A stretch of 23,432 nt of DNA, from UHGV virus genome UHGV-0174115, one strand, 5' to 3'. Origin of the DNA: a virus. Below the pieces are notes generated by a model. It searched no databases. It saw only the letters and a list, made by a program, of their open reading frames with translations, and was not told the DNA's origin. Below, piece after piece: positions 4,842 through 21,156 of the stretch; the stretch's first letter is position 1; each line of letters opens with the position of its first letter. The position numbers and the translations under genes are program-made.

Positions 4842-5058
4842 TTGGTGTACCTCGTTGTTTATCTACAGCGATTTTTTTAGCACCAACATACTGACCTATA
4901 CAGAAACCGAAATAGGTTAACAACACTGTATCATCAAGTGTGCGGTCCACGGCCTGATAAATCAGAATGCCTGTTACCACGAGGAAGCCTAAAGCCGCTT
5001 GTGCGCGGCTTAAAGAGATCCCCCCGGTTGTGTTACGTAATATGCTGAATTTATCCAT
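4828..5058 (-). CDS. Small two-TMD membrane protein (holin/antiholin-like)
   Basis: Two hydrophobic segments (AALGFLVVTGILIY, VLLTYFGFCIGQYVG); start uncertain (ATG 5058 chosen; an ATG at 5088 would overlap the endolysin 3' end). Confidence 0.45.
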   Translation of the reverse strand: MDKFSILRNTTGGISLSRAQAALGFLVVTGILIYQAVDRTLDDTVLLTYFGFCIGQYVGAKKIAVDKQRGTPNDNP

Positions 5059-5458: not shown

Positions 5459-5778
5459 TGCTTACTCCCGGTTTTACGTTGTTCCGCTTTCAAACCTTCA
5501 ATAACAACTTTCAGGTCATTTGTTGACTGTGTTAGCTCTTTAACACTAGTGAGGATTTCAGCGTTCTGTGTGGCCTGATATTCGATTTTGATGTCGTGAA
5601 CATCCACTCGGGATTCCACTCGCTTTGCCAGATTAAGCGCCTCATGCGCATAGGTTTTTGCATCAGTAATATCTTTTTCATTAGAATTGATTTGGTTTTG
5701 AGTTACTCCGTAACCTACCAACCCCGTGGCAACAAATGCTATTATAGGCCAATACCTTAACACTGGGTTATCAGACAT
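5455..5778 (-). CDS. Single-TMD protein upstream of endolysin (putative holin)
   Basis: N-terminal TMD (YWPIIAFVATGLVGYGV) then charged helical C-terminus; first gene of the lysis cluster; AGGAG 9 nt upstream of ATG 5778. Confidence 0.4.
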   Translation of the reverse strand: MSDNPVLRYWPIIAFVATGLVGYGVTQNQINSNEKDITDAKTYAHEALNLAKRVESRVDVHDIKIEYQATQNAEILTSVKELTQSTNDLKVVIEGLKAEQRKTGSKQ

Positions 5779-5804
5779 TGTTTTACACTCCTGGAGAATT
5801 AAAG

Positions 5805-8411
5805 ATGGCTAACTGTAACGATTATATCAGCGCTGATGATTTGAAAACAGGCAAACAAGCGATTTTACATATTGAGCATGTAGCGAAAAGTCGTGATGCT
5901 GCTGGCAACCCTGCACTGGAAGTAACAGATACTATTCGTGGTGAATCAGTTACTAACAAGACGCTTGATGGTTTACAGCGAATGTACACGGGGGCCATTA
6001 GTCAAGTTGGTTATGTCACACTAAAAAGTTTTCAATCAGGCGTACCTTTGCCGAATAACGAACTGACACTACCGAATCAAGTATTACAAGATGAAACAGA
6101 CGGTGAATACTACAGATGGGATGGTGTTTTCCCTAAGGTTGTCCCATCTGGCTCAACACCAGTTAGCACGGGGGGCATTGGTGTAGGTGCATGGTTAAGC
6201 GTTGGAGATTCCACTCTTCGTAGTCAGGTTGAAATTACCGCTGAGTCAATTGGTGTTGTAAGTGGTGTTGTTTCGCAATCTGTAGCAAAATCCAACGCTG
6301 ATATTATCAATGCTAAAGCGGCAGAGATAAGTGCTGTGGGTGGTGGGAAAATAATTTTCACCAGAGATTTATATCAGGTGCATATGAATGAGTCTGATTT
6401 TAGTTCTTCACCCGAAACAATTCGAGTAGCAGCGCTTTGTATTCCTTATGATAATGTAATTCTCGAAGGTCAAGGATGGAATTCAACTACTATACAAGCA
6501 TGGGCAACCAACTCCGCATATGGTGTTTTGCAGTGGTCAAAAGCACCATTGCAAAATGGTGTGACGAAAGTTCATGGTGTGGGTCTACACAACATTTGTA
6601 TCGATGGTAATTACCAAGGGGATTTCACACCGGGGTCTTATGTAAGACAGACAGAAGGGATTGTAGGTGCAGGCATTGAAGGTTTGAGCATCAACAACCT
6701 CAAGGTTAAAAACTGTTCCCACTATGGGATGGGTTTGCAGAACGGCGGCTACAAAGGGTGCATTATTGATGGTTACTGGTCAGAAAATACCGGTGCTGAT
6801 GGTATCGATATTAAAGATAATGGCTCAGTCAGCCGTGCATTCCAGTTAAATAACATCTTTGTTTTTAATTTTGGACAACTTGATGAACCAAAGAACCCAT
6901 GGGCTGGTGTTGATGTCATGTCAATTGCGCCAAAAGTATCTAATGTCTACATTTCTGACTTTGGAGATGTTGGTTGCCCAGGGGCGGGTGTTCGCATAAA
7001 GCAGGGACCAATAGGTGATCTGGCTGGAAGGGGATCAAGTGCGTGGGCAAATGTTTCTGACATAACGGTTGTACAAAACAGGTTTGGTGCAGCTTATACG
7101 ACATTGATTGGGCTGCACATAAAAGCTCCTTTTGTAAACTTCAGCAACATCGTTGCAATAGGATACGAAGGCGGGAGAATGAAAAATGGCGTCTGGATAG
7201 AAGAGAGGCACAGCCGGGGTTCTAATATTCAGATAGCCAACGCGGAAGATGGTTTATCTGTTACCGCCTCAACCAGTGGCACATCTGATGGACGACAGTA
7301 TGGTGATGGTGACGATACGGTAATTAACGGCCTTGTATGCAGAGATGTTAACCGGGCTGCAATCATCAACAGGAAATACGTGAAGTTAAGTGGGATAACT
7401 TTTAAAGATTGCCCTGTAGGGTTTGTATCTGGTGGTAGTGGCTCTGGTAAAATAACGATAAAAGGGGTGCATTTAGATAATGTTCCAAACCCATTTGGTC
7501 TAATGGGCGGAACTCACCACATCATCACTGATGTTACCGGCCCAAGCTCTGCAGATTGGCAGGCTGGGACTGGTGTTATAAAAGGTGCAAGTGATTTTGT
7601 TGCCACCACAATCATGAGCAAAAATAGCATACGTCTTTATTCTGGCTCCACAGATGATGCGCTTGGTACGGAAGTCGCGCGCTTTGCCTCGACTGTAAGT
7701 GATGTATTTTCTACGCTGCGTATCACTGGCAACCTCCAGCCGGTCGCCGCTAACACATATTCTGTAGGTACAAACTCATTGCCATGGGCAGGCGGTTATA
7801 CCCAGACGGCGTTTACTGTCACCTCCGATGAAAGGCAAAAATCTCGCCCAGTGATGCTGGCTCGTGGTTCTCTCGAACCCGCCCAAACGACAGATTCACG
7901 GTTAATGGAAGCCCCGTACGCAGATGATATTCTGGATGCCTGGGCGGAAGTAGATTTCGTTCAGTTCCAGTTCATTGACCGAATAGAGGTAAAGGGAGAC
8001 GATGGTGCGCGCTGGCACTTTGGAATTATTGCTCAGCGTGCCAAGGAGGCATTTGAACGCCACGGACTTGACCCTCACAAGTTTGCTTTCTTCTGTTACG
8101 ATCCAGAAGAAACCATTCCTGCTGTGTATGAATCCGTCCCGGCGAAGTATGAAGTTGTGCCAGCCGTTTATGATGCCGATGGGAATCTGGTTTCGCCAGA
8201 GTTGTGGGAAATGACTGAACCAGCGCATGAAAAGTTGGTGGCTGAGTCATATGTTGTTGGTGAGAAGTATGGTATCCGTTATGAAGAGGCGTTAGTCCTT
8301 GAAGCTGCATTACAACGAAGGAAATATACAAGACTCTTGACGTTAACCGAAAAACTAGCGTCAAGAGTAGAAATACTAGCGTCAAGAGTAGAAATACTAG
8401 AAAAGAAATAA
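5805..8411 (+). CDS. Tailspike/tail fibre with beta-helix (pectate-lyase-like) region and C-terminal intramolecular chaperone (peptidase S74-like) domain
   Basis: Gly/Asn-rich central region (e.g. NCSHYGMGLQNGGYKGCIIDGYWSENTGADGIDIKDNG) and C-terminal ...DSRLMEAPYADDILDAWAEVDFVQFQFIDRI...ARWHFGIIAQ... resembling endosialidase-type chaperone domains. ATG 5805 with GGAG 8 nt upstream (track 5778 is TTG). Confidence 0.8.
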   Translation: MANCNDYISADDLKTGKQAILHIEHVAKSRDAAGNPALEVTDTIRGESVTNKTLDGLQRMYTGAISQVGYVTLKSFQSGVPLPNNELTLPNQVLQDETDGEYYRWDGVFPKVVPSGSTPVSTGGIGVGAWLSVGDSTLRSQVEITAESIGVVSGVVSQSVAKSNADIINAKAAEISAVGGGKIIFTRDLYQVHMNESDFSSSPETIRVAALCIPYDNVILEGQGWNSTTIQAWATNSAYGVLQWSKAPLQNGVTKVHGVGLHNICIDGNYQGDFTPGSYVRQTEGIVGAGIEGLSINNLKVKNCSHYGMGLQNGGYKGCIIDGYWSENTGADGIDIKDNGSVSRAFQLNNIFVFNFGQLDEPKNPWAGVDVMSIAPKVSNVYISDFGDVGCPGAGVRIKQGPIGDLAGRGSSAWANVSDITVVQNRFGAAYTTLIGLHIKAPFVNFSNIVAIGYEGGRMKNGVWIEERHSRGSNIQIANAEDGLSVTASTSGTSDGRQYGDGDDTVINGLVCRDVNRAAIINRKYVKLSGITFKDCPVGFVSGGSGSGKITIKGVHLDNVPNPFGLMGGTHHIITDVTGPSSADWQAGTGVIKGASDFVATTIMSKNSIRLYSGSTDDALGTEVARFASTVSDVFSTLRITGNLQPVAANTYSVGTNSLPWAGGYTQTAFTVTSDERQKSRPVMLARGSLEPAQTTDSRLMEAPYADDILDAWAEVDFVQFQFIDRIEVKGDDGARWHFGIIAQRAKEAFERHGLDPHKFAFFCYDPEETIPAVYESVPAKYEVVPAVYDADGNLVSPELWEMTEPAHEKLVAESYVVGEKYGIRYEEALVLEAALQRRKYTRLLTLTEKLASRVEILASRVEILEKK
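8355..8396 (+). repeat. Perfect 21-nt tandem duplication (ctagcgtcaagagtagaaata x2) encoding LASRVEI x2 at the tailspike C-terminus
   Basis: Direct read of sequence; in-frame heptad duplication followed by LEKK and stop. Confidence 0.75.
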
Positions 8412-10940
8412 TTAATCATCCTGATAATAACGTGCATCATAATTGATGCACGTTAAACCCACTTGATAGTTATTATCCCTCCCTGATGGTTCCATAGTCT
8501 GAACCAACATCGCTAGCTTACTCCGTTGGTCATCTGCTCGGATCACAAATGCGGTTCGGTCACGTAACCAACCCGTATAAATTTCTTCAGACGGTTGATG
8601 ACTCAGGATTACTGTGAATTCATCGTTTCCAGCAATAATTGGAATATTTTCAATTGTACCCAGTCGCCCAGTAAGCGTAATTGAATAAACGTTACCTGGT
8701 GCAATTACCACCGGATCACTTAAAGTAAGTGTTAAGCCATTTACATCTTCAACGAAACCTTCCATTTGTTTCATTCGAGTGTTGTCGATCATGTCGACTC
8801 GCATACCGGGTGTAGCCTGTAACCCGATACTGTTGGTAATTGTTTCGTGGGTTATGCGTTGATAGCGAAGTTTGTTCATTTCACGATCAGCACGGATTGT
8901 AGCCAGATACTTAGACTGACACGCAACCAGGTCAATTTTGTTCAGGTTTATTTCTTCACCACGGGTGACATACAGATAAGACTTAACATCGTGGTCGAAG
9001 TATTTAACCTGAACGCCTGTATAATCTTTTGGTGGGGCGAATGTGCGGGTACGTTTATCACTGTCCGGGATCTTATATGCGTGACCAAACTGCATAGCAG
9101 ACTGATCCTGTGGTAATTCGGGCCAGAAGTATAGCACACTACCGACCTGATACGGGGTCACATTAACGGTACTGCAAATCGTCTGTAACCCTTCTTCGTA
9201 GGTGGTGCTATTGTTATCAAACGTGTAACCAGCCTGAATAGCACGAATATCACCAAAGTAATCTAACAATTGTTGTTGAACTGCGTACAGTGCTGTCTGG
9301 TCTATTGTACTGATGGTACGACGACCAAATACAGGATCGAGGTGCATGGACATAACAATGTCTGCGAAGTTCGAACTTGCGATACCATTATAAACACGGG
9401 TTGCTGTCATGTTTAATTTACGTTCTTTTTGTTTTAAAGCAGCATTGGTCGCTTTTGTTACAGCATGAATAAGCGTTACATCACCATAAGAGCGTGGTGA
9501 AATGTTACTGATTGCGTAGAGATCACGCCATTTAACATTGTCAACAACTGTTCCTTCGAAGTCTTTATCCGTATTCGATAAACGTCTTACCGAAACGTTT
9601 ACAGGTCCATTAAACGGGTTTTTCAGTATGACAGTCTTACCCACTGATTCCGTAAATCGTCCGGTAACCTGAAACGGATGATTTACACTCGCCTGAATAC
9701 CTGCTGGGTCTGAAAGAATCAACATGAAATCAATAGTAAATGGGTATACATCACCGTCCGTTTTATACACTCCGTTCTGCGCATACATGTTAATCATTAC
9801 TTTATCAGCATTTTCTAATAGATATGGTCCGACAATATACGGCGTGGTACTGTCAAGAGACGGTGAAAACTTGTATAAAACACTTCCACTTTCTTCGGTA
9901 GTTTCAAGTTCCCAGTAACCATCATTTCGCAAATAAGCCTGTGTATATGCAGCCTGGCCATTTTCAGACAGAATATCCCAACCATCACGACCATTAGTAT
10001 CAATGATTAACGTATTCTCACCTGCATAAATAACATCATATTCACCGGACAGGTCATTACGTACATACGTGTTTAACGGTAACGTATTAGGTGTAAAACT
10101 GTAAAATTGTGATAAACGAATTTTACCACCGATTGGTGCACGTTCTGACCAGTCAATCGTAGTGTTATCATCGCTGGAAATCGTAGTATCAATTTCACCA
10201 GTGCTGTAAATTTTAAAACTCGCTTTGCTGATATCAGCATAGTTTGGTGGCTTGACTTCAGATCCGTCTGCTTCGTTCGATGACTTAGCAACCATGATCG
10301 GAAAAGTGTTAATATCAATTGCACCACCGATATTCATGTACGGCGAACCATAACCGGGCGCATTACCTTTTTTATAAAAGTCTAATTTTTCACCACTGAT
10401 ATTTATAGCAGGTGTAATACCGTCACGAACATCTTCGACTTCGTATTCACCAACACCCAGACACAGAAACTGAACTTCATATTCTGTTCGGTCAATGAAG
10501 ATTCGGTAGTCCATTAACAGATCGGGATATGCCAGTACACGACCACGGATATCAGAAATACGTTCACCCGGTCGTGAAGCGTTGGTACGCCCCTGAAGCG
10601 CGTTGTTAGATGATGCTGAACGTGAGTTCTTAAGATTAGCCGACGCACTGGTATTCGGCATGAACAATTTTAAAATGGGGTTTAAAATTGTGCTAATAAC
10701 TTTCGTTATTGCACTAACCACCCCACCTTTTGGTAATTCATAAATGTGATAAACAGCATCAGGATCAGTTAATACGCTGGGGTCAGTGACCCATTTCTGG
10801 GTAATGTTTTCGTCGTTTTTATAAATCAGTAACCCACGCGGACGAACTGTACCCACGGGCCAGCGTTTCAGCATCCATTCACCAAAGTCAACGTTATCCG
10901 CATGTTCAACAGGATTAGTGTGATAAATGACTTTAGACAC
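8412..10940 (-). CDS. Large tail-tip / central fibre (host-specificity, J-like by position) protein, 842 aa
   Basis: Last and largest gene of the tail-tip module downstream of tape measure and small tip proteins; GTG start 10940 with GGAG 9 nt upstream. No specific motif recognised. Confidence 0.5.
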   Translation of the reverse strand: MSKVIYHTNPVEHADNVDFGEWMLKRWPVGTVRPRGLLIYKNDENITQKWVTDPSVLTDPDAVYHIYELPKGGVVSAITKVISTILNPILKLFMPNTSASANLKNSRSASSNNALQGRTNASRPGERISDIRGRVLAYPDLLMDYRIFIDRTEYEVQFLCLGVGEYEVEDVRDGITPAINISGEKLDFYKKGNAPGYGSPYMNIGGAIDINTFPIMVAKSSNEADGSEVKPPNYADISKASFKIYSTGEIDTTISSDDNTTIDWSERAPIGGKIRLSQFYSFTPNTLPLNTYVRNDLSGEYDVIYAGENTLIIDTNGRDGWDILSENGQAAYTQAYLRNDGYWELETTEESGSVLYKFSPSLDSTTPYIVGPYLLENADKVMINMYAQNGVYKTDGDVYPFTIDFMLILSDPAGIQASVNHPFQVTGRFTESVGKTVILKNPFNGPVNVSVRRLSNTDKDFEGTVVDNVKWRDLYAISNISPRSYGDVTLIHAVTKATNAALKQKERKLNMTATRVYNGIASSNFADIVMSMHLDPVFGRRTISTIDQTALYAVQQQLLDYFGDIRAIQAGYTFDNNSTTYEEGLQTICSTVNVTPYQVGSVLYFWPELPQDQSAMQFGHAYKIPDSDKRTRTFAPPKDYTGVQVKYFDHDVKSYLYVTRGEEINLNKIDLVACQSKYLATIRADREMNKLRYQRITHETITNSIGLQATPGMRVDMIDNTRMKQMEGFVEDVNGLTLTLSDPVVIAPGNVYSITLTGRLGTIENIPIIAGNDEFTVILSHQPSEEIYTGWLRDRTAFVIRADDQRSKLAMLVQTMEPSGRDNNYQVGLTCINYDARYYQDD
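8429..8454. terminator. 11-bp perfect-stem hairpin (aacgtgcatca-taat-tgatgcacgtt) at the junction of convergent tailspike and tail-tip genes
   Basis: Perfect inverted repeat read directly; lies within the last codons of the minus-strand gene, 18 nt past the plus-strand tailspike stop. No clean U-tract, so terminator role is tentative. Confidence 0.35.
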
Positions 10941-17599: not shown

Positions 17600-18022
17600 T
17601 TAATATATTTCTTCGTATTCGTAACTAAGTACGACGTTCGTTAAAAACCACGCGTTATCACGACCCTGATGACGAATATCAACACTCGTGTAAATTAACG
17701 GGTGATCCTGCCAGACACCTTCAAATAATTTTGCAAGCCGATCCGCAATATCAATACTCAAAGTGTCCATACCATACTGAGCAGGTGTGCGTACCTGTAA
17801 AAAAACGTTTCCTGTTCTTAAACGACGACGACAAACACCTTCCCCACCCAGCGTGGTTATTGTCCACGGACCGGGATTGTGTGTCAGAATCAGACCTGGT
17901 TTTTCTGTAGTGTCGTCAGGAAGTTGACCAGAAGCGATTGTAAATCTGTCAGGCGTAATTTCCACAGGAAGATTCGCCAGAACGCGATTATAAACAATTC
18001 CTGAAACATCTGAGAGTGTCAT
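17600..18022 (-). CDS. Neck/tail terminator-like protein (by position)
   Basis: 141-aa gene directly upstream of the major tail gene; start overlaps upstream stop. Confidence 0.4.
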   Translation of the reverse strand: MTLSDVSGIVYNRVLANLPVEITPDRFTIASGQLPDDTTEKPGLILTHNPGPWTITTLGGEGVCRRRLRTGNVFLQVRTPAQYGMDTLSIDIADRLAKLFEGVWQDHPLIYTSVDIRHQGRDNAWFLTNVVLSYEYEEIY

Positions 18023-18453
18023 CACTGATTAAACCTCACCATTATTCCGGCTTTTAATATAGCACGTTCGACAAACCCGGAAGGTGTCTGTGTACTGCTA
18101 CCACCATTGAGAACCCCAATGTAAGGAACGTTGTTAGTAATATGCAGTTCCTGACCATTAACTTTAATACTGCTGATAGTGACCGTATCCTGTTCGACAC
18201 GTGCTTTACTGGCTTCAACATTACCTGTTGGTGTATCAGGACTATTAGCGGGTTGTCCCTGATCGAACCACCAGTTGTTGCTTGCCCAGCCTGTATCTAC
18301 AGGTGTACCGTCAGGTGGTTCACTGACAAGAATATTACGTAACGTCAGGACATACCGGATGACTTCACGATCGGTAAAATCTCGCAGGTCAGCTTTAATG
18401 TCTTTAAAGACACCTGTTATACGGTTTATGTCATTAACGTTAGCCTTAGCCAT
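18022..18453 (-). CDS. Head-tail joining (neck) protein (by position)
   Basis: 143 aa from ATG 18453, one nt after the upstream TGA; GGAG ~11 nt upstream. Confidence 0.4.
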   Translation of the reverse strand: MAKANVNDINRITGVFKDIKADLRDFTDREVIRYVLTLRNILVSEPPDGTPVDTGWASNNWWFDQGQPANSPDTPTGNVEASKARVEQDTVTISSIKVNGQELHITNNVPYIGVLNGGSSTQTPSGFVERAILKAGIMVRFNQ

Positions 18454-18454
18454 A

Positions 18455-18829
18455 TCAGGCCGCTCCAACAGGGTGAATAAATGCCATATCATCCCCTAAC
18501 AATCGTGGGTTTTGACGATCAAGAAGGCGATATTCTTTACCACGTTCATCAACCACAACATCACCCCGATCAGGAACAAATCGCGGTTCAAAACTCTGAC
18601 TATCCATAATTACCATCGTTGTGGTTATTCTGGTCATAGTAGTCGGATCCCACTTTTCTAATGGGTAAATATAACCACGACAGGTGTGTGATTCAGTAAC
18701 GGTTGTACCCGGTAATGTAGGATTAGACGGGTTGGGAACTGTTGTCACACGTTTTACCGTCAAATCTTCACCTACTTCAGCAAGTGCACGAGTAACACCT
18801 TTCAGGACACTTTGACGTTTGTCTGCCAT
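18455..18829 (-). CDS. Head closure / head-tail adaptor-like protein (by position)
   Basis: ~124 aa; ATG 18829 overlaps upstream TGA. Confidence 0.4.
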   Translation of the reverse strand: MADKRQSVLKGVTRALAEVGEDLTVKRVTTVPNPSNPTLPGTTVTESHTCRGYIYPLEKWDPTTMTRITTTMVIMDSQSFEPRFVPDRGDVVVDERGKEYRLLDRQNPRLLGDDMAFIHPVGAA

Positions 18830-19239
18830 CACCGTTCACCCTCGTTAAGTGCACGACCACCGCTTTCAAGTGTTACAGGTGGGTTGTCGAACTGACCACG
18901 TTGAATAGCAGGTTGCATACCAGCGCCAGTTAATGTAGCTCCACCAACACCCATAAAACTACCTAACAAACCGCCACCTGAATCAGCGCCAGTATTAATA
19001 CGTAAAATAAAATCTTTTTTAAGTTTATTCCAGGCGTCTGCTGACTGACTACTGCTGAGTGAGATCGGACCTACTTTAATATCAGTATCGTTGCTGGCAA
19101 TAGACGCCATATAATCACAGAGAGCGACGCAAATACTGAGAGGATTTGTATAACCGTTGTCAATGTACCACTGAATTTGTTCATCAGTAACATCAGGGAC
19201 ACTGATCAAATAACGAATACCTTCAACTGTAATAGCCAT
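18829..19239 (-). CDS. Hypothetical structural (connector-region) protein, 136 aa, Gly-rich C-terminus
   Basis: Start taken as ATG 19239 (AGGTGA 4 nt upstream); the longer track ORF (to 19413) would read through an intrinsic terminator hairpin. Confidence 0.4.
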   Translation of the reverse strand: MAITVEGIRYLISVPDVTDEQIQWYIDNGYTNPLSICVALCDYMASIASNDTDIKVGPISLSSSQSADAWNKLKKDFILRINTGADSGGGLLGSFMGVGGATLTGAGMQPAIQRGQFDNPPVTLESGGRALNEGER

Positions 19240-19278
19240 GTGATCACCTGTGAGAAATGTTTTCGTTATATTAGCACG

Positions 19279-19304
19279 AAAAAAAGCCGTCTTAAACAGA
19301 CGGC
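19279..19304 (-). terminator. Intrinsic terminator (GCCGTCT-gttta-AGACGGC then U7 on minus-strand RNA)
   Basis: Plus strand reads aaaaaaaGCCGTCTtaaacAGACGGC; on the minus strand a 7-bp GC-rich stem is followed by 7 T. Lies at the 3' end of the non-coding island, ~40 nt upstream of the next gene start. Confidence 0.6.
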
Positions 19305-19328
19305 AAATGGCTCTGGGTGATAATGAGG

Positions 19329-19408
19329 GTTTTACATAACTGGTCATCCACACCTGACGTCCCAACATACCCCTATGCGTGACACGTGAATAACCAGTTA
19401 TGTAAAAC
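19329..19408. repeat. 16-bp perfect inverted repeat (gttttacataactggt / accagttatgtaaaac) separated by 48 nt
   Basis: Arms at 19329-19344 and 19393-19408 read directly; spacer contains the palindromes gacgtc and cacgtg. Confidence 0.7.
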
Positions 19409-19718
19409 GACACGCAGTTCAGGATGTTTCACAACATGCTTTACCCACGATTTGCGGCTTTCCCGCCAGCAAGATAAGGATCACCTCCTTATCAGCGAGT
19501 GTTTGGTTGCAGTGCCAGGCGCTTATCTTCTGGTTGTTTCTGAGAACTGCAATTCACCACAACGATAAGAGCACTGAGATGTATGATAATCGTCGCAGCA
19601 CCACTTTAAACAACTCAATGCTCTTACCTGTTGTGTGCCGGTTACGTTTATCCGGCGTCTTTCGACCGATTAAGTGGTAGTGTCTGCTATGCAGTTCTGT
19701 CACTGACTTAACAATAGG

Positions 19719-20072
19719 TCAAGAATAGTTATATGTCAAGCCTTGTGATTCACACCATTCAGCAGCGGCACTTTTACTGCTGAATGATTCTGAATTCATC
19801 GGCATACCCATAACATAAACGTTATAGGTTTTTGGCGCGTCACGTCGGATTTCAGCCGCAGTGGTTGATGCCGATTCTTCGGTTGCTACAGTCACTGGTT
19901 CTTCAACGGTCACAGTAGCTGGTTCAATGTGGCGCATACGCACAAGGGCATTTAAAACAGCCGGGATAGCTTTTGATGTTGATACTTTATCGCCAGCGGA
20001 CATCTGTTTACCGTTCCACAGCATCGGACGGGTGAAAACATATTTCAGTGACGGATCATATGAATTACGCAT
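19719..20072 (-). CDS. Hypothetical protein (117 aa) downstream of the major capsid gene
   Basis: ATG 20072 with GAGG 9 nt upstream, just after the capsid-gene terminator; the longer track ORF (to 20315) would overlap the capsid gene 3' end. Confidence 0.5.
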   Translation of the reverse strand: MRNSYDPSLKYVFTRPMLWNGKQMSAGDKVSTSKAIPAVLNALVRMRHIEPATVTVEEPVTVATEESASTTAAEIRRDAPKTYNVYVMGMPMNSESFSSKSAAAEWCESQGLTYNYS

Positions 20073-20087
20073 GATTTTAACCTCATG

Positions 20088-20117
20088 AAAAAAAAGGGGC
20101 AGCATAAGCCACCCCTT
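20088..20117 (-). terminator. Intrinsic terminator after the major capsid gene
   Basis: On the minus strand an imperfect stem (4 G:C pairs, two mismatches, 2 more pairs, loop of 4) is followed by T8; lies 20 nt past the capsid stop. Confidence 0.55.
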
Positions 20118-20136
20118 AATAATACCACAGTTGTTA

Positions 20137-21156
20137 TTAAACCGCGTCGTAGAACAGAACGCCCAGGTCAGGTGCAACCATCTGAACATCAATGGCAAAT
20201 TCCGCTTCAACGAAATTACCACGGCGACCTTCAACACCCGGGTAGGTGCGGATAGACGGACCGTTGTTAACACCCAGACCGATGAACTCGTTCCACACGA
20301 AGCCCGCAGCAGCAACAGGTTTCATATTACCAACAGTCGGTTCAACATAGTTGAGCATCAGTACACCAGTTTTAGCAAACTGGAAGTCTGACAGCGGATT
20401 GCCGTCACCGTCTTCAACGCCATCAGTAGCCATGTTAACCACGGACTGCATGATTTCCAGTTCGTCAACTTCCAGCAGTGCAGCCAGTGCCTGTTTAGTC
20501 ACGATCCCCGGATTCTGAGTGGTAGAACCACCATTAATGCGGTCAATAACAGCCGAGCTACGGGTCAGTGCGTCATACACGTCCAGCGTCATCAGTGCTT
20601 TGTTCCAGCGACGACCACCGGATGCCAGAGAGAACGCAACACGACGTGACAGGATATCACCAATCGGATCGGCATTCGCATTAGACCATTTCAGGAATTC
20701 ACCCGTGGACGGAGACGCGTTTTTACCCTGGAAATCAAGACCCCATTTACCAGCGGTCAGGAATTTTTCAGCAAAATCCACTTCTTTGTTGATCAGTAAC
20801 GCATCTGTGGTTACTGCTGATGCTTCCATATCCAGTTGCTGACCGTTCTGAACGTTTGCACGTTTTTTGTCAGAAATGAAGATACGGATCGCATCGTCAT
20901 CAACAGTGTAACCCTGGTTTTTGGTTTTATAACCAATAGTGTTAGCAACACCATCTTCGGCACGTTTGGAGTTAACCGGACGACCGAAATAACCTTTCGG
21001 GTAAGTCAGAAACTTACCAGCAGCCTGATTAACAGGAACTACCGGGAAATAACGAGTACCGACAAACAGTGATGTATCCTGCCAGTAACTTACAGAAAAG
21101 TTAGACAGGAATGTATCTGGTGCGCCAACGTCGCGAAAATTCTGTTTGTAACTCAT
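20137..21156 (-). CDS. Major capsid protein (339 aa)
   Basis: Position after protease-like/scaffold-like/decoration-like genes (lambda C-Nu3-D-E-like order), strong AAGGAG RBS 8 nt upstream of ATG 21156, terminator immediately downstream, typical size. Confidence 0.7.
   Translation of the reverse strand: MSYKQNFRDVGAPDTFLSNFSVSYWQDTSLFVGTRYFPVVPVNQAAGKFLTYPKGYFGRPVNSKRAEDGVANTIGYKTKNQGYTVDDDAIRIFISDKKRANVQNGQQLDMEASAVTTDALLINKEVDFAEKFLTAGKWGLDFQGKNASPSTGEFLKWSNANADPIGDILSRRVAFSLASGGRRWNKALMTLDVYDALTRSSAVIDRINGGSTTQNPGIVTKQALAALLEVDELEIMQSVVNMATDGVEDGDGNPLSDFQFAKTGVLMLNYVEPTVGNMKPVAAAGFVWNEFIGLGVNNGPSIRTYPGVEGRRGNFVEAEFAIDVQMVAPDLGVLFYDAV

Follow-up and report, generated by a model that had tools for sequence, protein, structure and literature searches.

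Hairpins that serve as RNase III processing sites are well known in phages, and include the intercistronic R sites of T7, the sib hairpin of lambda and the hairpin in the lambda N leader. The cut made by RNase III is staggered and double, leaves 2-nt 3' overhangs and is rnc-dependent, and the substrates of the enzyme are limited by sequence anti-determinants in the proximal and distal boxes. Transcribed hairpins are also formed by miniature palindromes, such as the Correia/NEMIS elements of Neisseria, the enterobacterial ERIC sequences and the RPE of Rickettsia; the Correia elements are reported RNase III targets.

The element described here is an 80-nt inverted repeat in a 23,432-nt stretch of the virus genome UHGV-0174115; the whole of that stretch is referred to as the window. 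We hold, with moderate confidence, that the repeat is an insertion specific to Sasha-type phages which would act as an RNA-processing or stability hairpin. It would have the size of an RNase III substrate and be cut in the stem, and the cut would alter the upstream message.

The inverted repeat and its predicted fold

The window belongs to a Sasha/9NA-type siphophage, and over 1 kb it is 98.6% identical to Escherichia phage KarinMuster_Bas82 (Bas82) and 98.2% identical to Salmonella phage Sasha; 9NA is likewise a Salmonella phage. The first-pass annotation had reported a 16/16 perfect inverted repeat with a 48-nt spacer, and this was re-found; on the plus strand the arms are GTTTTACATAACTGGT (19329-19344) and its exact reverse complement ACCAGTTATGTAAAAC (19393-19408). 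The two short palindromes that had been assigned to the spacer, GACGTC and CACGTG, were located at 19356-19361 and 19383-19388, the second of them spanning the boundary between the spacer and the extended arm. The repeat is, as claimed, far beyond chance: none of 300 first-order Markov shuffles of the window gave perfect 16-nt arms at spacers of up to 100 nt, and the maximum, 15, was reached once. With spacers of up to 100 nt, the 16-nt pair is the longest perfect inverted repeat of the window and also of the complete 58.5-kb genome of Bas82, the closest relative. The second-longest inverted repeat in Bas82 lies outside the window (4989-5016) and is a 28-bp perfect palindrome with zero spacer, AGCCGAAATTAAAC plus its complement. 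The arms are actually longer than first noted. According to a repeat finder they extend to 23 nt (19329-19351 / 19386-19408) and are 91% complementary, with two mismatches.

In minus-strand RNA the 23-nt arms are joined by 21 Watson-Crick and two G-U pairs. The predicted fold of this strand consists of 24 contiguous pairs (21 Watson-Crick, 3 G-U), above which come a bulge of 5 nt, an inner stem of 4 bp and, at the tip, the hairpin GCAUA-GGGG-UAUGU; the base of the hairpin is continued by the short stem CUGCGUG/CACCCAG. Folding supported the earlier suggestion of a long stem-loop in the minus-strand RNA. A 151-nt stretch has a folding energy of -55.2 kcal/mol (z -5.0, equalled by 0 of 200 shuffles), compared to -45.6 kcal/mol (z -3.7) for the plus strand, and for the 80-nt element alone the values are -38.3 kcal/mol (minus) and -26.1 kcal/mol (plus). 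The minus-strand fold of the element is the stronger because both arm mismatches are G-U on the minus RNA and A-C on the plus. If both mismatches arose as transitions, G-U at both on the minus strand has a chance expectation of about 25%, and the strand-specific wobble pairs weakly favour RNA over DNA.

The 80-nt hairpin is not itself an intrinsic terminator, as it is followed by CCCUCAUUAUC and the terminator is a separate hairpin at 19304-19279. In a scan of 18800-20300 against Rfam 15 (E <=10), the top match touching the element was STnc560, with 13.7 bits against a threshold of 55. ARAGORN found no tRNA and no tmRNA in the window, and comparison of the element with rRNA and tmRNA, as a test of mimicry, gave chance-level 10-mers only. 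The features of the locus are given in Table 1.

Table 1. Features of the minus-strand locus in window coordinates, with the states of the insertion site in the last three lines.
Feature	Position	Strand	Description
gp37-like gene	19719..20072	-	117 aa; phrog_19242; final head-module gene before the gap
Sigma-70-like promoter match	19711..19739	-	TTGACA-17-TATTGT; overlaps gp37 stop; consensus match only
Unit A	19558..19635	-	long hairpin CACAACAGGUAAGAGCA...UGCUCUUAUCGUUGUG, variable tip
Unit B	19506..19563	-	three-helix RNA module; five co-varying pairs
Conserved non-coding block	19412..19502	-	adjoins the hairpin on its 5' side; contains GCGG-GAAAG-CCGC and AUGUU-GUGA-AACAU as small hairpins
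Basal stem, 5' half	19411..19417	-	CUGCGUG; kept in relatives without the insertion
Hairpin 5' arm	19386..19408	-	GUUUUACAUAACUGGUUAUUCAC; perfect 16 nt = 19393-19408
Apical 34 nt	19352..19385	-	one more G-U pair, 4-bp inner stem, 5-bp tip hairpin
Hairpin 3' arm	19329..19351	-	GUGGAUGACCAGUUAUGUAAAAC; perfect 16 nt = 19329-19344
Basal stem, 3' half	19313..19319	-	CACCCAG; closes a loop of only 14 nt (9NA/SP069) or 10 nt (Klebsiella phages)
Intrinsic terminator	19279..19304	-	GCCGUCU-GUUUA-AGACGGC then U7; begins 24 nt downstream of the hairpin
Extended -10 promoter-like sequence	19268..19276	-	TGCTAATAT; directly past the terminator, ~30 nt before gp38 ATG; sequence only
gp38-like gene	18829..19239	-	136 aa; phrog_21889; start = ATG at 19239
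10 nt at site			Klebsiella Carvaje-type phages
14 nt at site			9NA, SP069
94 nt at site			Sasha clade; includes the repeat

Genomic setting, insertion history and proposed role

The local genes all lie on the minus strand, in the order major capsid, terminator, gp37-like, a gap of ~480 nt, gp38-like and a homologue of the head-closure protein Hc1. The inverted repeat is placed in the gap, which holds no credible gene and runs from the head module to gp38-like, the first gene of the connector module. The terminator that follows the hairpin is annotated in the Sasha record and kept in 9NA, SP069 and the Klebsiella relatives, and a sequence equivalent to the extended -10, TGnTA(A/G)AAT, is retained in the 9NA, Klebsiella, Proteus and Flyfo relatives. 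Since the terminator is only 24 nt on and the extended -10 comes directly after it, the hairpin marks the 3' end of the head-module transcription unit, and we infer that gp38 and the genes downstream would have a promoter of their own, from which transcription begins anew. That the minus strand would be transcribed through the gap is implied by the orientation of the genes, by the terminator downstream and by the co-varying RNA modules on the same strand. The sigma-70-like match at 19739-19711 may mark the point where an independent non-coding transcript begins. The BASEL paper is silent on this region. Repeats are also seen elsewhere in the window, where two long ORFs converge (5778-8411, plus; 8412-10940, minus). 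Here (8333-8389 and 8428-8455) ACTCTTGACGTTA is followed by two copies of its complement, with which it pairs, then comes a 12-nt perfect hairpin with a 4-nt loop, and the repeats at 8333-8455 may be a bidirectional terminator region.

The insertion site, between the conserved GAACUGCGU and CCCAGAGCC, was found in three states only (Table 1). Three gap-pattern scans of IMG/VR returned mostly chance matches, and after filtering the 10-, 14- and 94-nt states were left. The simplest history would be one clean 80-nt insertion in the Sasha lineage, given that the Klebsiella outgroups are without the element. In the distant relatives Proteus Gorganvirus and Flyfo Tbat2_2 the spacer is only 70-85 nt; that of Flyfo contains a clear terminator then the extended -10, and the Proteus spacers retain the extended -10. 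The element is dispensable for the basic life cycle, as 9NA, SP069 and the Klebsiella relatives live without it.

Altogether 17 Sasha-type copies were found (the window, 9 distinct GenBank genomes, 4 IMG/VR contigs and 3 metagenome contigs), and the element is intact, with identical arms, in every one. The first-pass annotation had taken conservation and co-variation of the arms in related genomes as the touchstone of the repeat. Conservation is complete within the Sasha clade and does not extend beyond it, the whole element being absent from the nearest outgroups, and co-variation cannot be scored because the arms never vary. In 13 Sasha-type sequences the varying positions number 0/46 in the arms, 3/34 in the apical part and 17/137 among the third-codon positions of gp38 (Fisher, arms against gp38 third positions p = 0.0056; arms against apical part p = 0.07). 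The arms are less variable than synonymous sites and appear constrained; their invariance is weakly informative in so young a clade (the 1-kb region is 96.6-99% identical). All the variable positions of the element (19384, 19359 and 19358) are apical. In the L029 variant GACGTC is changed to GATATC, ie CG to UA, and both of the predicted inner-stem pairs are retained.

E. coli RNase III accommodates a duplex of ~22 bp (PMC6212723). The predicted hairpin, with 24 contiguous pairs and 4 more, supplies the at least ~20-22 bp of largely uninterrupted dsRNA expected of a substrate. Cleavage in the stem would be the most likely effect of the insertion, as the 24-bp helix fits the duplex that the host enzyme takes. 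What is observed is the repeat itself, with its strand asymmetry, its position, the history of its insertion and arms that vary less; transcription of the region, cutting by RNase III and the effects of the cut we infer. The insertion sits in the loop of the conserved CUGCGUG/CACCCAG stem, within a hairpin-rich non-coding locus of the minus strand. The minus-strand transcript would then fold into the 24-pair hairpin just before the terminator that closes the transcription unit, and host RNase III would cut the stem. It is proposed that by this cut the upstream RNA would lose the terminator hairpin, and that the major capsid/gp37 message and the structured RNAs of the gap would thereby change in stability or maturation, much as in lambda sib retroregulation or T7 intercistronic processing.

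The main rival to the RNase III reading, which we consider possible but doubtful, is that the element is a functionless palindromic insertion that was made once, is transcribed, and is tolerated because it sits in a permissive loop. It could have originated, for example, by template switching, by hairpin-mediated repair or as a one-off mobile palindrome, and its perfect arms would reflect youth or intrastrand correction, not selection. Such a passenger would be expected to look much as the element does, ie confined to one young clade, missing from the nearest relatives, single-copy, and with invariant arms that offer no co-variation. The gap is also an indel hotspot, with 82 additional nt in PDP46 and ~290 in PJ16 (relative to window ~19560-19710), and in the L020/L036 variant both partners of one predicted inner pair are changed, to a non-standard G-A, which disrupts that pair. 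The lower variability of the arms compared to synonymous sites (p = 0.0056) and the intactness of all 17 copies argue the other way, and so does the lack of a donor sequence in phages, E. coli genomes, plasmids or GTDB. In phages, blastn with a word size of 11 returned only 10 Sasha-type records, all 100% identical. Zero element matches were obtained in 5,426 E. coli genomes and 72,556 plasmids at E <=10. Two pattern scans of GTDB, with one genome per species for 185,579 species, gave zero matches and then one chance 21-mer inside a gene, and a one-arm search of IMG/VR gave 4 true loci plus chance single matches. A word-7 blast of the whole Bas82 genome found no second copy, ie the element is single-copy per phage genome.

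The surrounding gap and the less probable readings

Judged from sequence comparison, the gap is a mosaic of putative structured RNA modules that recur in unrelated phages (P1, P22-like, Jersey-like), and these comparisons show a minus strand that would work as structured RNA. Each module keeps its closing stem and varies at the tip; the 80-nt hairpin is itself a tip of this kind. The block next to the hairpin (~90 nt) is nearly invariant in Sasha-type phages, 9NA and SP069, and can still be made out in Klebsiella Carvaje-type phages and Jedunaviruses (ZCEC13, BUCT_49532). It begins with UAAGGAGGUGAUCC (19478-19491), whose 14 nt are perfectly complementary to the 3' end of 16S rRNA, and one block hairpin has one compensatory pair. 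UAAGGAGGUGAUCC is part of a small hairpin at the block start, where it covers loop and stem; in the 17-codon ORF after it the changes are non-synonymous or pairing-compensatory, and only 6 codons are present in the Jedunaviruses.

Unit B is common to the 9NA-like phages, P1/P7/D6 and the P22-like phages. Over 6 sequences 94% of cells are paired and 5 pairs are changed on both sides, which was equalled by 0 of 500 shuffles and by no slid control; Unit B has no Rfam match. In P1 (locus L051, ~1195-1260) it lies just past tRNA-Thr in the Pban leader. In epsilon34 (locus L052, ~1001-1060) it lies in the PL-to-N leader, with a boxB-like hairpin on one side and an N-like gene on the other, which we take to be the position of the lambda N-leader RNase III hairpin. 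In Escherichia phage ZCEC13 (locus L042, ~1130-1170) the variable tip of a Unit B-like module carries a 29-37-nt GGTGAGGTAATGGCTCACCATGGCGACGA that is 86% identical to E. coli 16S rRNA helix ~250-280, with differences that keep pairing; BUCT_49532 has a different insert at that position.

Unit A has a conserved base, ACAACAGGUAAGAGCA / UGCUCUUAUCGUUGU, and is preceded by a CCGG...CCGG hairpin, the whole covering 19558-19659. Its 5' half together with the CCGG hairpin matches (~90%) unannotated DNA of more than 100 Jersey-type Salmonella/Klebsiella phages, and in the one example examined, phage 64795_sal3, the match adjoins a tRNA(CAU) on the same strand. The tip in P1 (locus L051, 1115-1200) and in the Klebsiella phages holds a tRNA T-arm-like GGUUCGA(A/G)UCC. 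The 3' strand of Unit A is boxA-like (UGCUCUUA), a resemblance that may be incidental since P1 co-varies there. The tips of Unit A differ in AVIO78A and PJ16, and SP069 is without Unit A entirely. The 82-nt insertion of PDP46 duplicates the GUUGUGGUGAA junction and brings a second copy of the CCGGAUAAACGUAACCGG hairpin, and in PJ16 the 5' part of the gap is swapped for the ~290 nt.

In Klebsiella phage Carvaje the gp37-gp38 gap holds a tRNA-Ser(GCU) (locus L040, 592-679) immediately upstream of the conserved block, so RNA genes do occur at this locus. A tmRNA-like tag module, AUAAAU GCA AAC GAA GAA ... UAA, is seen in the gap of PJ16 (locus L005, ~1341-1484, minus), Carvaje (L040, 205-339) and KP13-27 (locus L041, 131-340), with a weaker one in P1 (L051, 461-628); the window is without it. 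The predicted tags are ANEERFLMAA and ANEEMYLAVA. The Rfam matches of this module are sub-threshold (best 27.8 bits; beta_tmRNA match E = 1.6e-4), and ARAGORN called no tmRNA in the module of the relatives. PJ16_048, an opposite-strand ORF annotated over the module, is probably spurious.

This company of tRNA and tmRNA-like modules, the promoter-like site at 19739-19711 and the apparent constraint on the arms would suit a hairpin that is excised as a stable ~80-nt RNA and acts on a host or phage target, eg as a decoy for a dsRNA-binding factor. We regard such a trans-acting RNA as improbable: no Rfam family matches, and the apical part, the expected determinant of specificity, is the part that varies most. 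A wider version, to which we give an equally small chance, sees in the gap a modular non-coding RNA cassette of an undescribed kind, of which the hairpin would be a functional arm acquired recently; the hairpin would be processed to a stable dsRNA with a role of its own, and might for example titrate or decoy a host dsRNA-binding or defence factor. The modules of this cassette would circulate among P1, P22-like, Jersey-type, Jedunavirus and Klebsiella 9NA-like enterobacterial phages, and the idea would also take in the 14-nt complement of the 16S rRNA 3' end and the tRNA and tmRNA-like modules of the relatives.

A site acting at the level of DNA, ie a cruciform, a protein-binding site (for example for the small terminase) or a transposon-like pair of terminal inverted repeats, is less probable again. 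The 16-bp arms are perfect on DNA, and terminal inverted repeats around a short core give the element the outline of a MITE. However, a spacer of 48 nt is unfavourable both to the extrusion of a cruciform and to a dimeric operator, so that neither of these earlier suggestions is supported, and the folding energy favours the RNA of one strand. The small terminase fares no better, as the element (17974-18053 in Bas82) is more than 16 kb from both terL (1-1764) and terS (53526-54278) and is missing from 9NA; its absence from 9NA, SP069 and the Klebsiella relatives means that it is not a group-wide packaging site. Nor is it a MITE: the 16-bp perfect ends are present, but the element is single-copy, nothing like it occurs in the E. 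coli genomes, plasmids or 185,579 species genomes searched, and the flanks (...GCGTGTC / CCTCATT..., ie GTC and CCT) show no target-site duplication. The ends, GTTTTAC...GTAAAAC, suggested a CRISPR repeat or an RNA anti-CRISPR; presumably they are neither, since enterobacterial repeats differ in length and sequence.

That the repeat codes for an N-terminal extension of gp38 is very improbable: there is no stop in the 63 codons that precede the ATG, and a long gp38 is annotated in Bas82 (Bas82_0039), PDP46 (PDP46_0047), AVIO78A (AVIO78A_052) and 9NA (9NA_042), but the two extensions use different frames for the nucleotides in common with 9NA/SP069, in the Klebsiella relatives the frame is shut 8 codons upstream of the ATG, the putative extension contains the intrinsic terminator and the promoter-like element, and the ATG at 19239 has its own Shine-Dalgarno sequence, AGGTGA, and is the start used in the Sasha, PJ16 and SP069 records. 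By this comparison of frames the 194-aa ORF (18829-19413) is an ORF-calling artefact; such extensions of gp38 run through the terminator, and in Sasha-type phages also through the hairpin.

Comparison with known systems

Taken alone, the hairpin is a minor feature, regulatory or structural, of a single phage clade. The more interesting lead is the surrounding gap, a shared, unannotated structured-RNA locus of enterobacterial phages. The analysis also corrects a recurring misannotation, the long gp38 carried through the terminator in several GenBank records. For the fate of phage late mRNA the locus provides a natural experiment, in that the presence of exactly this 80-nt hairpin before the terminator sets the Sasha-type phages apart from the 9NA type; Bas82 belongs to the BASEL collection and can be grown on derivatives of E. 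coli K-12.

The locus may be compared with the spacer hairpins and stable RNAs of phage tRNA clusters, such as those of the P1 Pban leader and the T4 tRNA region; Carvaje has a tRNA-Ser in the same gap. Units A and B, which flank the hairpin, recur beside tRNA genes in the P1 Pban leader (dicF-like region, tRNAs) and in the Jersey-type phages. Unlike these P1, T4 and Jersey-type clusters, the window is devoid of tRNA genes, and those phages do not have the 80-nt hairpin.

Like the Correia, ERIC and RPE sequences, the hairpin is a short element with inverted ends that is inserted in a putatively transcribed region or RNA gene and would form an RNA hairpin. Those elements are multi-copy and usually have target-site duplications, whereas the Sasha-type element is single-copy and has neither a duplication nor relatives in the E. 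coli, plasmid and GTDB sequences searched.

The RNase III sites of T7 and lambda are likewise long, near-perfect helices of about two turns in a non-coding stretch of a polycistronic phage transcript. There is no sequence similarity to them, however, and cleavage of the Sasha-type element is a prediction. The T7 sites have internal loops, whereas the helix of the Sasha-type hairpin is uninterrupted for 24 bp. Lambda sib too stands beside a terminator and is placed to change the fate of the upstream message, but it overlaps the terminator, which the Sasha-type hairpin does not. On these comparisons the element, which belongs to no curated RNA family, would work like a phage RNase III-type hairpin and in form resembles a transcribed miniature palindrome.
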